DNA of 64,000 bases from Escherichia coli. Lineage in GTDB: Bacteria; Pseudomonadota; Gammaproteobacteria; Enterobacterales; Enterobacteriaceae. Shown here in pieces: positions 54,684 to 64,000 of the stretch. The notes beneath the pieces are model-generated. The model saw only the letters and a list, made by a program, of their open reading frames with translations, ran no database searches and was not told the DNA's origin. The translations under genes were made by a program, and so were the position numbers. Location of the stretch: assembly GCF_044324875.1 (NCBI RefSeq), contig NZ_CP172185.1, one strand, 5' to 3'. Every line of letters begins with the position of its first letter. The stretch's first letter is position 1.

Positions 54684-54696
54684 TTCCTGTTTTATT

Positions 54697-54724
54697 CAAT
54701 GAGGGTTGCCCGGCAACCCTCATT
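54697..54724. terminator. Bidirectional terminator hairpin between convergent yeeX and pduV
   Basis: aatgagggttgc-ccgg-gcaaccctcatt perfect 12-bp palindrome, flanked by T-rich sequence on the plus side. Confidence 0.55.
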
Positions 54725-54783
54725 GCTCATTGATTCTTTTCTGTGTATCAAAGTCATCATTCCCATCTGATAACCTATCGAAA

Positions 54784-55227
54784 TTAGCGACAGACATCTT
54801 CTGTATGCAGCAAGGCAAAAAGTTCTGTAACTCCATTGTTATTAACCGCACTGGTTACTAACACGTTGTGCGCTCCAGCTTCCCGTAACCAACATTTCAC
54901 CAAAGATATTTGTTCCATGCTGGCTAAATCTGCTTTGGTTACTACTCCAATGACCGGGCGATTCATTGACGAGGTAAAGCCTGGCGAAAAAGGGGACCAC
55001 GGTGCGTCCGCATTAAGCATCAGGGCGATAATGTCCGCTTCGCAGGCGCTGACCAACAATGCTCTGTAGAGGCTGCGGTTTTCGAGGTATTCGCCTGGTG
55101 TATCAATGGTGGTCGGGGACCAGACGATTGCCTGCGTTTTCTGATAATGAATATTTTCGCCACGCAGACATTGCGTGAGCGACGTTTTTCCGCACTGGCT
55201 GGGGCCGATGAGCATCATACGTTGCAT
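54784..55227 (-). CDS. pduV: EutP/PduV-family small GTPase (microcompartment-associated)
   Basis: 147-aa ORF with P-loop [10 protein letters not shown] and DTPGE switch motif; last gene of the pdu operon in this window. Confidence 0.85.
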
Positions 55228-55231
55228 AACG

Positions 55232-55582
55232 TCAGGTCCGCGTAATGGGGCAGGCGGTAAAGCGCATCATTTCACCCAGCGTACGGGTAACCTGGCTAAG
55301 TGCATATTCAATCGCAGAAACATCACCAGTCAGCACTACGGCACCGGTAAAACGATCAAGAAAACCGATCTCTACAGCGCCTGATTTTGTGGCGATATCA
55401 CATGCGATGATAGATGCTTCGCTGGGGGTAATTGTCAGAATGCCAATAGCAGAAACGGTGTCTGGTAAACCCAATTTCTTAAACAGATCCTTCCCTGGAT
55501 TGGCGATGACATGTGCCAGCGTGACCTGCTTACCAGGGACATATTCCTGAATCATCCGTTCAGTTGTGTGCTGAGTTGTCAT
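55232..55582 (-). CDS. pduU: BMC shell protein PduU (circularly permuted BMC domain)
   Basis: ORF 55232..55606; start taken at the Met overlapping the pduT stop (TAATG), giving 116 aa ...[32 protein letters not shown]... Confidence 0.85.
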
Positions 55583-56136
55583 TATCCCTCCACCATCTGA
55601 CGCCACATGGCTTCATGTGGACGGGCAATCACCGACCGATAGACCAACAAACCTTTTTCTCCCGCACGCTCGCTGGCGACAGAGACCGCGTTATTAACAT
55701 CTGAAATATCGCCAGCAACCACCATGTAGCATTTACCGCCAATGCCAAAAGCCATATGCACGCGAACAAGAATGACATTCGCAGCTTTGACAGCACAATC
55801 GGCAGCGTCAATGCAGGCGGCGACACTCCAGGTTTCGACTACGCCGACAGCCCGGTGCTGTTCAACTTGGTTCAGTCCGCTGATTGCAGAAAGGATGCTG
55901 GGATGAATATTCGGCAGGACAAGACTGTCGACCAGCATTTCACCAGCAAGGGAAGCACCGCTGTTGATGGCCTGTTGCACCGCGCCCACATCGCCACCGA
56001 GCATCAGCAGAAATTTTCCGGGGCATAGCGTTTTGCTGACCAGTAACTCAACGTTGGCGCTTTTCAGCATGGCGTCGCCGGTTTCCATCCCTTTCGCGAT
56101 ACTGCTAAGTTCTAAAATACCTACCGCTTTCGACAT
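55582..56136 (-). CDS. pduT: BMC shell protein PduT (tandem BMC domains)
   Basis: 184-aa ORF with two BMC-like repeats. Confidence 0.85.
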
Positions 56137-56138
56137 CG

Positions 56139-61773: not shown

Positions 61774-62402
61774 GGCATTGACACCAGTGTGGCAAAAACG
61801 TCAGGGCTATCAGCCCCTGCGGCGTTGGCCTCATCGGTATCAATATGCATTTCAAGACGCATATCCGGAGAGACGCGAACAGCGACGTTTTCGAATATCA
61901 GTCGTCGCTCATCACCTTCAATGGCAACCGCCACTTTATCGCCATGCGTAACGCCATAAATCAGGGCATCCAGCGGAGACATATGAATATGCCGTTGCGC
62001 GACAATGACGCCAGATGTGATCTCCAGTTCCGCAAATGGACTTATCAAACGAATCCCCGGAGTGCCGCTGAGATCGCCTGACATGCGTAGCGGGGCGGTG
62101 ATCCCTAACGTTCTGGCGTCCGTCCGGGAAATTTCCACCTGACTTGCATTGCGTAGCGGCCCCAACAAGCGAACGTTGTGCAATTTACCTTTTGGTCCCT
62201 CCAGCGTAACAACCTGTTCAGCAGCGAATTGGCCAGGTTGCATTAACGGCTTTTTCTCGCTAATCGGTTGTTCAGGAAAAAGACGCAAATAATCCGCTGT
62301 TGAAAGATGAATATGACGACTGGAAACACCCAGAGGGATAGGGCGCTCACGCATCTCATCCAGAATCTGGCTCACTGTTTCCTGCAAGGTTTGTTTATCC
62401 AC
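61770..62402 (-). CDS. pduL: Phosphate propanoyltransferase PduL
   Basis: 210-aa ORF; PduL/EutD-type phosphotransacylase repeats. Confidence 0.85.
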   Translation of the reverse strand: MDKQTLQETVSQILDEMRERPIPLGVSSRHIHLSTADYLRLFPEQPISEKKPLMQPGQFAAEQVVTLEGPKGKLHNVRLLGPLRNASQVEISRTDARTLGITAPLRMSGDLSGTPGIRLISPFAELEITSGVIVAQRHIHMSPLDALIYGVTHGDKVAVAIEGDERRLIFENVAVRVSPDMRLEMHIDTDEANAAGADSPDVFATLVSMP

Positions 62403-62404
62403 TG

Positions 62405-62827
62405 CTACTCCCCTCGCTTATTGGTGTGCAGGCAAAGTGAGCGGGGCTCACCTTTTTGCCGCTGACATGCCGGGTCAAGACACAAATTACAACTGATAAT
62501 CTCTGAGGTGACGGTTGTTGCTGGTGTTTCGCTTGTTTCAACCGTCCCAGTCAATGCTTCAGTTGTGTGGGGCAGAATGCCGTCTCCCGGGCGGGCAATT
62601 ACTTTGTGTGCGACAAGGCCATTTCGCTGTCCGGCGAAACTGGCTCCCGTCGCGATCGCCGCATTAACCGAGGCGACGTCACCGGTGATTTTGATGAGCG
62701 TCCAGCCTGAGCCATTGGTCTTCTCAAGGCCAACCAGCATGATAGACGCGGCTTTTGCCATAGCGTCTGCGCAACTGATAGCGAGTGCCAGACCACTGAC
62801 TTCAAGTAATCCCAGTGATTGCTTCAC
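62405..62827 (-). CDS. pduK: BMC shell protein PduK (BMC domain with Cys-rich C-terminal extension)
   Basis: 140-aa ORF; N-terminal BMC domain; C-terminal CNLCLDPAC...C motif. Confidence 0.8.
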   Translation of the reverse strand: MKQSLGLLEVSGLALAISCADAMAKAASIMLVGLEKTNGSGWTLIKITGDVASVNAAIATGASFAGQRNGLVAHKVIARPGDGILPHTTEALTGTVETSETPATTVTSEIISCNLCLDPACQRQKGEPRSLCLHTNKRGE

Positions 62828-62850
62828 GCTGTGCTCCTTAGCGAATGGGG

Positions 62851-63126
62851 TTATGCCGATTTAGGTAAAATAGCCTCAACATCACTGTGTGGGCGTGGGA
62901 TGACATGGCAGGATTTAACTTCGCCAACGGCGCTTGCCGCAGCGCTCCCCGCATCAACGGCGGCCTTTACTGCGCCAACATCACCGCGGACCATCACCGT
63001 AATCAGACCCGAACCAATCTTTTCATAGCCAACCAGCTGCACGTTGGCGGATTTAACCATGGCATCTGCAGCTTCAATTGCGCCAACTAACCCTTTTGTT
63101 TCAACCAGTCCTAGTGCGTTGTTCAT
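62851..63126 (-). CDS. pduJ: Major BMC hexamer shell protein PduJ
   Basis: 91-aa [63 protein letters not shown]...; canonical BMC-H. Confidence 0.9.
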
Positions 63127-63145
63127 ACTGCGTTTCTCCTGTGGA

Positions 63146-63496
63146 TTATGAGTGGAATTCCCGGAAGGGAATTCCTTTTACCAGGCGGGCAGCGTTAGTG
63201 CCGATGCTGCGCCGGGCATGGTTATCTTGTTGATACATCAGCGTAAACAGTGGCGCTGATGCTGGTAAGTTTTTGTAATGCACAATCAGTTTTTCCTGAT
63301 CGCAGGCAATGCCAACCAACAGGGGAGATTGACGAGCAGCCAGCCAGGCGCTATCGATAACTTCACCTGACGGAATGTGTTGAATGCGAAAGGGAATACC
63401 TTCCTCTTCAATGCCAAGAAGCACCTCATCCCATGTAGTGATACAGTCACCGATCTCCATGACGACGATGGCTGGTGCACGCTCTTTACCTTCCAT
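63146..63496 (-). CDS. pduH: Diol dehydratase reactivase small (beta) subunit PduH
   Basis: 116-aa ORF in the conserved position after pduG. Confidence 0.82.
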
Positions 63497-64000
63497 GAAT
63501 CGACTCCTTGTGCCAGGCGATGAGGAGCCCAGTAGCTACCGCATTGCGCGGACCTTCGCTACCACGGATATTCCCCCGCCCGGCGACCAGTCGATAATGT
63601 GCCAGCGCGTCGGTGACCAATTGCGGTACTTCGAAATCCAGCGAAGAGCCACCCACCAGAACGACAAACGGAATGTCGCGAATATTTCCGGCAGGGCTTA
63701 CCTGACGTAGCGCGCGCAGGGAATTAGTTACGAAGACACGCTCTTTCGCACTGCGACGGACAGCGCGTACTTTTTCCAGCGTCAAATCACCGGGAATAGG
63801 CACCAGTTCGTCGGGTTTCACTACACAGACGCGGGCAAATACATGGGGGGATAGGGGAGTAGGGAAGAACTGAACGCTGCCATCTTCATGGCGTAAGTGG
63901 AACAGGCTTTCTACTTTTGCCAACGGGTACTTTTTGATTTCTTCTGCCAGATAACGATCATTTAAGCCCAGCTCACGAGCGATAATCATCGTTACCATGT
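63486..64000 (-). CDS. pduG: Diol dehydratase reactivase large (alpha) subunit PduG, C-terminal part (5' end beyond window)
   Basis: ORF open to the window edge; C-terminal 170 aa shown; overlaps pduH start. Confidence 0.82.
   Translation of the reverse strand, partial: MVTMIIARELGLNDRYLAEEIKKYPLAKVESLFHLRHEDGSVQFFPTPLSPHVFARVCVVKPDELVPIPGDLTLEKVRAVRRSAKERVFVTNSLRALRQVSPAGNIRDIPFVVLVGGSSLDFEVPQLVTDALAHYRLVAGRGNIRGSEGPRNAVATGLLIAWHKESIHGR

Follow-up and report, generated by a model that had tools for sequence, protein, structure and literature searches.

Among the described pdu loci, the closest to the one studied here belong to the subtype PDU1B, defined by Axen, Erbilgin and Kerfeld (2014, PLoS Comput Biol) as containing all of the pdu genes except pduW and pduX, together with cobUST and without cbi genes (PMC4207490, Text S1). 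Its members are Escherichia coli E24377A, LF82 and UMN026, and Shigella sonnei 53G and Ss046 (PMC4207490). In that classification, PDU1B is the exception among the PDU1 subtypes in lacking PduW, the others being spread over two phyla (PMC4207490). The second relevant subtype, PDU1A, is that of Salmonella enterica and Citrobacter, in which pduABCDEGHJKLMNOPQSTUVWX lies beside the cbi-cob operon. PduW and PduX are cytosolic proteins, i.e., they are not components of the microcompartment (PMC7181861).

We compared with these subtypes a pdu locus in the window, i.e., the whole 64-kb stretch of DNA that was analyzed, which is 98%–99.9% identical to E. coli chromosomes throughout. The locus is very likely an ordinary Escherichia PDU1B locus, whose operon ends at pduV, abutting yeeX/tmaR, and lacks pduW and pduX.

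The pdu genes of the window

Open reading frame calls in the window revealed, on the minus strand and in the canonical order, pduG(partial)-H-J-K-L-M-N-O-P-Q-S-T-U-V (Table 1). These frames agreed with the RefSeq gene calls of NZ_CP148331, the complete genome nearest to the window, with which the sequence shares 98.6% identity over 24 kb. Families were assigned using the NCBIfam curated cut-offs, which were passed by the products of pduV, U, S, P, O, M and L. Those of T, Q, N, K, J and G matched the expected kinds of family with scores below the curated cut-offs, in the case of pduG because its reading frame is truncated at the end of the window. The initial annotation, which had read the genes from pduG to pduV in canonical minus-strand order and placed the end of the operon at 54784, is confirmed. 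The GC content of the pdu genes (0.50–0.54) was near that of the flanks.

Table 1. Features of the pduV-yeeX junction and of the pdu genes in the window
Feature	Position	Strand	Evidence and remarks
yeeX / tmaR (DUF496, PTS regulator TmaR)	54354..54683	+	NCBIfam NF003844 197 bits, NF040881 187 bits; RefSeq of homologous locus; convergent with pduV
Spacer, yeeX stop to pduV stop	54684..54783		100 bp; homologous across Escherichia species; no recognizable pduW/pduX remnant
Hairpin, perfect 13-bp stem and 3-nt loop	54697..54725		54697-54709 pairs with 54713-54725; fold
pduV (EutP/PduV small GTPase-like), last gene of the operon	54784..55227	-	TIGR02528 184 bits, cut-off 138; RefSeq
pduU, shell protein	55232..55582	-	NF012012 EutS-type 134 bits; RefSeq "PduU"
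pduT, shell protein	55582..56136	-	TIGR02526 157.6 bits, below curated cut-off; RefSeq "PduT"
pduS (RnfC-like 4Fe-4S cobalamin reductase)	56139..57482	-	TIGR01945 254.9 bits; operon position
pduQ, 1-propanol dehydrogenase	57479..58591	-	Fe-ADH family matches below curated cut-offs; RefSeq "PduQ"
pduP, CoA-acylating propionaldehyde dehydrogenase	58602..59987	-	NF011927 718 bits; RefSeq "PduP"
pduO, two-domain adenosyltransferase	59984..60991	-	TIGR00636 164 bits; RefSeq
pduN, vertex protein	61003..61278	-	CcmL/EutN family matches below curated cut-offs; RefSeq
pduM	61282..61773	-	NF011957 245 bits
pduL, phosphate propanoyltransferase	61770..62402	-	NF011652 255.8 bits; product propionyl-phosphate is the substrate of the missing PduW
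pduK, shell protein (BMC domain)	62405..62827	-	BMC-domain matches below curated cut-offs; RefSeq "BMC domain-containing protein", same operon position
pduJ, shell protein	62851..63126	-	EutM-type BMC 118 bits, below cut-off; RefSeq "PduJ"
pduH, diol dehydratase reactivase small subunit	63146..63496	-	RefSeq of homologous locus; NCBIfam: marginal match to dehydratase medium subunit family, E = 1.3e-4
pduG, diol dehydratase reactivase large subunit, C-terminal 170 codons, cut by window end	63486..64000	-	TIGR04491 269.7 bits, profile positions 439-598

As in PDU1B, which comes from the same genus, the visible pdu genes, G (partial) to V, are all present without a change of order, pduW and pduX are missing, and the host falls within Escherichia/Shigella. 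Nothing substantive distinguishes the two, the window covering the downstream half of the locus. The remaining homologues of the PDU1A pdu genes, i.e., pduA-E and pduF, and pocR lie beyond the window and were found in NZ_CP148331. There, the region beyond pduG contains pduA, pduF, pocR, a cobalamin riboswitch, a 145-aa CbiG-like fragment and cobU-cobS-cobT, as in PDU1B; that fragment is all that separates the riboswitch from cobU in a pdu-carrying E. coli genome.

With PDU1A the locus shares orthologous genes from pduG to pduV in the same order, the chromosomal neighborhood yeeX-yeeA-sbmC-dacD on the downstream side, and the same biochemistry up to propionyl-phosphate. However, whereas Citrobacter has pduW (propionate kinase, 404 aa) and pduX (L-threonine kinase, 288 aa) between pduV and yeeX, neither gene follows pduV in the window, and the cbi genes, needed to make B12 de novo, are also missing from the Escherichia locus.

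Distribution of the pduV-yeeX junction

The absence of pduW and pduX between pduV and yeeX, claimed in the initial annotation, was confirmed: tblastn with Citrobacter PduW and PduX against the whole 64-kb window yielded no matches at E ≤ 1e-5, and pduV is followed by 100 bp and then yeeX. By blastn, a method that divergent protein-level homologues would escape, no counterpart of the Citrobacter pduW-pduX DNA was found in 5425 of 5426 complete E. coli genomes. The single exception was E. coli strain 48, which has a foreign second island, pduA-pduW, with IS fragments on its flanks; in six other genomes the pduW-pduX query matched just 63 nt of tdcD. This is consistent with previous reports, in which no counterpart of PduW was found in E. 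coli (PMC3475010) and in which strain ZvL2, where a pduL homologue is present, yielded only TdcD, with 44% identity to Salmonella PduW (PMC7360682).

The end of the operon is not peculiar to this genome. An identical, full pduV-yeeX junction occurred in 641–643 of the 5426 complete E. coli genomes, so that pduV is the last gene of reference pdu operons in this species as well. Moreover, yeeX, the spacer and at least a stump of pduV were retained in 5417 of the 5426. The stump took more than one form: in one, seen in a K-12-like genome that we examined, 183 nt of pduV are followed by genes of the CP4-44 prophage, and in another, 297 nt of pduV are fused to a cbi fragment and cobUST. The pdu-less, K-12-like E. 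coli thus have the same yeeX, the same 100-bp spacer with its hairpin and the 3' 183 nt of pduV (97%–98% identity); they differ in having lost the remainder of the operon, whereas that of the window is intact up to the window's end.

Outside E. coli, a GTDB-wide scan recovered 29 loci, Salmonella and Klebsiella loci not being among them because the PduV peptide patterns used were too specific. Four Escherichia species representatives (two labeled E. coli, plus E. whittamii and E. albertii) had the pduV-yeeX arrangement. All 19 complete non-Escherichia loci, from Citrobacter, Pseudocitrobacter and others including an unclassified MAG, had pduV-pduW-pduX-yeeX-yeeA. Two further loci had pduV-pduW-pduX and no yeeX match, the sequence stopping inside pduX in one (L017) and no such match lying downstream of pduX in the other (L019). 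Altogether, pduW-pduX came next in 21 of 21 non-Escherichia enterobacterial loci reaching past pduV, and the identity of PduW in a non-Escherichia locus was clear (NF009063, 837 bits). The order pduV-pduW-pduX-yeeX, which the initial annotation gave for Salmonella, was therefore seen directly in the 19 complete loci, and for Salmonella itself it comes from the literature alone (PMC7181861, PMC4207490).

Because pduV-yeeX is the normal, published layout in E. coli and its sister species, this operon end is ordinary. It is already known, and as a novelty is of low interest.

The spacer and the origin of the short operon

The distance between pduV and the convergent yeeX, given earlier as about 100 bp, is exactly 100 bp in the sequence. 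Folding of this spacer gave −24.9 kcal/mol on the plus strand (z = −4.3) and −31.5 kcal/mol on the minus strand (z = −5.5). The hairpin was conserved in six Escherichia sequences, with 96% of cells paired and two compensatory pairs. In the initial annotation it had been called a 12-bp palindromic terminator; the palindrome is real, with a stem of 13 bp, but there is no U-tract at the hairpin, i.e., no T-run within 2 nt of it on either strand, and a terminator consensus scan did not report it. Because that scan was silent, the hairpin, although stable, cannot be called a canonical intrinsic (Rho-independent) terminator, and any terminator function is one that we infer. A search of the spacer against Rfam found no family at E ≤ 1. 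The hairpin probably marks a 3' end that the convergent yeeX and pdu transcripts have in common, and it may act as a 3'-end or stability hairpin despite the missing U-tract.

An alignment of the spacer across Escherichia had a mean column identity of 88% over 203 columns, including the 3' ends of pduV and yeeX. That it can be aligned across the genus argues for a single origin of the junction. We searched the 100-bp spacer for relics by local alignment with the Citrobacter braakii pduV end, pduX end and whole pduW-pduX, which yielded only a chance-level match of 16 nt at the hairpin; a profile of five Escherichia spacers, run with nhmmer against 20 non-Escherichia pduV-to-yeeX regions, gave a best E value of 0.64. 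An ATG TCT at the end of pduV in the window resembles the start of Citrobacter pduW (ATG TCT CAC), but appears to be a derived coincidence, other Escherichia species having GAA GGC or GAA GCC. Citrobacter pduV and pduW overlap at the stop of the former and the start of the latter (translational coupling). PduV homology ends at about residue 144, where Citrobacter pduW begins.

In the likeliest history, pduW and pduX were lost once, long ago, on the Escherichia stem. Such a loss would have removed about 2.2 kb in a single event, with its left edge at, or a few bases from, the pduW start codon. Since no remnant of either gene is left in the spacer, the deletion is deduced from comparison with the outgroups rather than seen directly. 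The lack of a detectable remnant would also suit the opposite polarity, i.e., a short operon that is older, with pduW and pduX added in the Salmonella/Citrobacter lineage and never in Escherichia. This is improbable, however, given that pduW-pduX follows pduV in every one of the 21 non-Escherichia loci that reach past it, in 19 of them between pduV and yeeX-yeeA, including those of a divergent Pseudocitrobacter and the unclassified MAG. In addition, PduW absence is treated by Axen et al. as the exception that marks PDU1B, the other PDU1 subtypes being found in two phyla, and the break in PduV homology exactly at the Citrobacter pduV/pduW overlap fits a deletion edge.

The initial annotation had offered either a lineage-specific shorter operon or a deletion; the former stands, whereas a deletion particular to this genome does not. 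For a recent event, confined to this strain or a narrow clone, nothing speaks beyond the bare absence of pduW and pduX in the window, and its probability is negligible: about 640 complete E. coli genomes with a full pdu operon share this junction, a stump lies beside yeeX in nearly all of the others, and the junction recurs in E. albertii, E. whittamii and two further Escherichia representatives and has been published as PDU1B. It is also very improbable that an operon already lacking both genes was acquired, or re-acquired, horizontally and took the place of the resident locus, at the same site, through homologous recombination. The divergence of the Pdu proteins from those of Citrobacter (amino acid identity 92% for PduU and 77% for PduV) is in the range of the flanking core proteins (94% for YeeX and 79% for YeeA), the GC content of the pdu genes is close to that of their surroundings, and neither the sequence nor the RefSeq annotation revealed mobile-element scars at the pduV-yeeX junction. 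These points have to be set against the fact that pdu operons do move in E. coli, as the second island of strain 48 illustrates, and against a history of loss and re-acquisition of the cob/pdu region in enterics, which Lawrence and Roth are said to have argued in 1996 and which has reportedly been a long-standing view.

Propanediol metabolism after the probable loss of pduW and pduX

An ancestral loss on the Escherichia stem could have been tolerated for a different reason in the case of each gene. PduX would serve only to supply L-threonine phosphate for the aminopropanol-phosphate linker, which CbiB would attach to cobyric acid. In Escherichia, with the cbi genes lost, imported cobinamide would merely be completed by CobU, CobS and CobT. 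Because de novo B12 synthesis, which PduX serves, has been lost in this genus, pduX would have become dispensable. A reason for the loss of pduX had not been raised in the initial annotation.

In the case of PduW, propionyl-phosphate made by PduL would be converted to propionate and ATP through the housekeeping paralogues TdcD and AckA. A tdcD gene was found in 5391 of the 5426 complete E. coli genomes, and it is reasonable to suppose, as the initial annotation did, that TdcD or AckA would take over the kinase step. Pdu-carrying E. coli strains are reported to make propionate from 1,2-propanediol (PMC9220930), and the E. coli pdu genes are expressed, with formation of propionate (PMC6379400, PMC9220930).

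A further, rather unlikely proposal is that, because the operon encodes no propionate kinase, the ATP-yielding last step of 1,2-propanediol fermentation would hang on kinases under foreign regulation, i.e., TdcD, from the anaerobic, catabolite-controlled tdc operon, or AckA. In pdu-carrying strains, e.g., Crohn's-associated adherent-invasive E. coli (AIEC), propionate output and propionyl-phosphate levels would then be gated by conditions unrelated to propanediol. If true, Escherichia would differ in regulation from Salmonella, with a possible effect on propionyl-phosphate-dependent protein modification.

The layout without pduW and pduX is visible in the annotation of every pdu-carrying E. 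coli and carries little weight as a discovery. Its value is modest, and lies in the way that gene loss tracks pathway loss: pduX has gone with de novo B12 synthesis, and pduW has gone where paralogous kinases exist. For engineering or modeling of the E. coli Pdu system, including that of adherent-invasive E. coli, it means that the step from propionyl-phosphate to propionate is not encoded by the operon.

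The pduV-yeeX junction in the window

The window is E. coli chromosome, as judged by megablast against 5426 complete E. coli genomes and by the RefSeq annotation of the best match, and it runs through wca colanic-acid genes, galF, an O-antigen cluster, gnd, ugd, wzzB, the his operon, yeeZ to sbcB, dacD, sbmC, yeeA, yeeX and the pdu operon. The initial annotation had placed pduG to pduV in order on the minus strand, ending at pduV, and open reading frames (ORFs), NCBIfam matches and RefSeq homologues agreed with this. The pdu ORFs had the lengths of their homologues annotated in RefSeq. 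PduV, PduU (EutS type), PduS (RnfC type), PduP, PduO, PduM and PduL scored above the curated NCBIfam cut-offs; PduT, Q, N, K, J and the truncated G matched the expected kind of family below the cut-off, and PduH gave a marginal match only, to a neighbouring family. When Citrobacter PduW and PduX were used as tblastn queries there was no match anywhere in the 64 kb, bearing out the claim that neither gene lies between pduV and yeeX.

The spacer between pduV and the convergent yeeX, originally put at ~100 bp, was exactly 100 bp, and its fold was much more stable than those of shuffled controls (z = -4.3 and -5.5). The 12-bp palindromic terminator proposed within it is indeed a palindrome, although its stem is 13 bp; its role as a terminator is putative, there being no U-tract at the hairpin and no report of it in a terminator consensus scan of the spacer.

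Features of the window (RNA and repeat rows are Rfam matches above the gathering score)
Feature	Position	Strand	Remarks
yeeX (current name tmaR)	54354-54683	plus	
Spacer hairpin	54697-54709 with 54713-54725		Perfect 13-bp stem, 3-nt loop; inside pduV-yeeX spacer
pduG (C-terminal part), H, J, K, L, M, N, O, P, Q, S, T, U, V	64000 down to 54784	minus	Intact ORFs
pduL	61770-62402		
326-aa IS110-family "RNA-guided transposase"	35244-36224	minus	NF033542, 255.8 bits
algC RNA	13007-13056		Upstream of 472-aa ORF 13013-14431, colanic-acid region
naRNA4/REP-type repeats (two)			
JUMPstart element			Ahead of O-antigen cluster
His leader			
sRNA STnc240			Downstream of ORF 45436-46386 (yeeY by homology to locus L001)
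All Rfam-matched intervals	13007-13056, 17445-17612, 22958-22996, 43570-43693, 46432-46506		

Distribution and origin of the junction

A pduW-pduX deletion peculiar to this genome is excluded by the same junction in other E. coli, and of the two readings first offered it is the lineage-specific shorter operon that stands: yeeA/yeeX-spacer-pduV-pduU stretches were fully covered in 643 (2.4-kb query) and 641 (1-kb query) of the 5426 genomes, with like annotation (tmaR, EutP/PduV protein, PduU). The layout is real, but it is the published, textbook-level Escherichia pdu architecture and was already known. The PDU1B loci of Axen et al. (Text S1, PMC4207490), which have the pdu genes except pduW and pduX, include those of E. 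coli E24377A, LF82 and UMN026 and of Shigella sonnei 53G and Ss046, and two independent papers report that a PduW counterpart is absent from E. coli (PMC3475010, PMC7360682).

The 1-kb query found at least a partial match in 5417 of the 5426 genomes. Of 40 genomes sampled evenly, nearly all retained yeeX with this spacer and a 3' part of pduV, which places the junction before E. coli diversified. The pduV piece of a K-12-like genome was 183 nt long and adjoined a transposase fragment and then CP4-44 prophage genes; in other pdu-less genomes a 297-nt piece was fused with an ORF for a CbiG-like fragment, upstream of cobUST (pdu-less examples: L032, 6485-6667; L033, 5485-6119). These stumps mark independent losses of the operon, all sparing the pduV-yeeX junction; such losses have since occurred repeatedly, running inward from the pduV side. 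Beside yeeX, most E. coli genomes carry a 183-nt pduV 3' stump whose annotation is a 60-aa EutP/PduV protein.

At blastn sensitivity, Citrobacter pduW-pduX DNA revealed no pduX-like DNA in any complete E. coli genome and a pduW-like gene in one, strain 48 (deer), where it ends a second, foreign pduA-pduW operon between IS fragments; in six others the match was a 63-nt stretch of tdcD only. The strain 48 gene (within the locus NZ_CP166879, 5243959-5275121), the sole one among the 5426 genomes, is ~75% identical in DNA to Citrobacter pduW and belongs to a divergent operon without pduX. The adjoining IS66, IS21 and IS4 fragments and cdiA toxin locus mark it as a horizontally acquired pdu island.

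A GTDB scan for PduV peptide patterns, using one genome per species, yielded 29 loci, which were annotated by tblastn with C. braakii proteins. All four Escherichia representatives (two labelled E. coli, E. whittamii and E. albertii) read pduU-pduV-yeeX-yeeA, one contig ending inside yeeX, whereas 19 loci from Citrobacter, Pseudocitrobacter and unclassified MAGs read pduU-pduV-pduW-pduX-yeeX-yeeA. Two more had pduV-pduW-pduX without a yeeX match: one sequence (L017) ends inside pduX, and in a Pluralibacter MAG (L019) yeeX was not found downstream of pduX. In Citrobacter the final codons of pduV overlap the start of pduW (404 aa; NF009063, 837 bits), and 40 bp lie between the yeeX stop and the end of pduX (288 aa, GHMP-kinase-like). 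The Escherichia and Citrobacter PduV proteins are homologous as far as about residue 144, the point at which pduW begins.

The lack of any detectable pduW or pduX relic in the Escherichia spacer would suit an ancestrally short operon to which other genera added the two genes. However, this is unlikely, because pduW-pduX is present in every non-Escherichia enterobacterial locus extending past pduV, and the pduV/pduW junction is coupled by overlap. Nor is horizontal replacement by an operon lacking both genes favoured: the Pdu proteins differ from those of Citrobacter about as much as the flanking core genes do, the GC content of the pdu genes is unremarkable, and mobile-element scars are absent. 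The Escherichia spacers are mutually alignable (88% mean column identity over 203 columns, including the pduV and yeeX 3' ends) and keep the hairpin (96% of cells paired, two compensatory pairs), which indicates that the junction arose once. E. albertii pduV (L005, 10001-10432) has 143 codons rather than 147 through an earlier stop (…AGC GAA TAA), and E. albertii and E. whittamii have 8 nt more than E. coli directly after the pduV stop.

Neighbouring regions of the window

The O-antigen cluster (22900-33900; wzx/wzy of the O17/O44/O73/O77/O106 family, manC, manB) shares 99.9% identity with strains of O17 type, whereas for the flanking colanic-acid (1-25000) and his-to-pdu (40000-64000) regions the best match among 5426 complete E. 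coli genomes is 98.6-98.7% identical. The pattern suggests a mosaic in which the O-antigen region was exchanged by recombination, and a source genome that has no close relative among the 5426. A ~1.3-kb insertion (35084-36477) between wzzB and hisIE encodes the 326-aa IS110-family transposase of the table. The insertion, which has a REP-like inverted repeat at its two ends (35084-35098 with 36463-36477), is missing from O17-type genomes that are otherwise 99.9% identical across that region. It could be an IS621-like, bridge-RNA-type element in REP sequence.

Probable tolerated loss of pduW and pduX

PduX is an L-threonine kinase that supplies the aminopropanol-phosphate linker, which CbiB joins to adenosylcobyric acid; of the cobalamin enzymes E. 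coli possesses just the late ones, CobU, CobT, CobS and CobC (PMC6249242). All that is left of the cbi operon in one pdu-carrying E. coli genome is a 145-aa CbiG-like fragment, which lies between the cobalamin riboswitch and cobU. Loss of the cbi genes would have left PduX without a pathway to serve, and a single deletion then probably took pduX and the adjacent pduW.

PduW, which is cytosolic and outside the microcompartment, converts propionyl-phosphate to propionate and ATP (PMC7181861). Because PduL is encoded in the operon, propionyl-phosphate is made, and a dedicated propionate kinase is not among the operon genes. Strain ZvL2 has a pduL homologue, and the sole PduW homologue found there is TdcD, which shares 44% identity with the Salmonella protein (PMC7360682); tdcD is present in 5391 of 5426 complete E. 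coli genomes. The deletion was probably tolerated because TdcD and AckA, candidate substitutes, could perform the kinase step. The E. coli pdu operon is reported to be expressed (PMC6379400), and the pdu microcompartment of adherent-invasive E. coli to generate propionate from 1,2-propanediol (PMC9220930); both reports agree with a tolerated loss of pduW and pduX.
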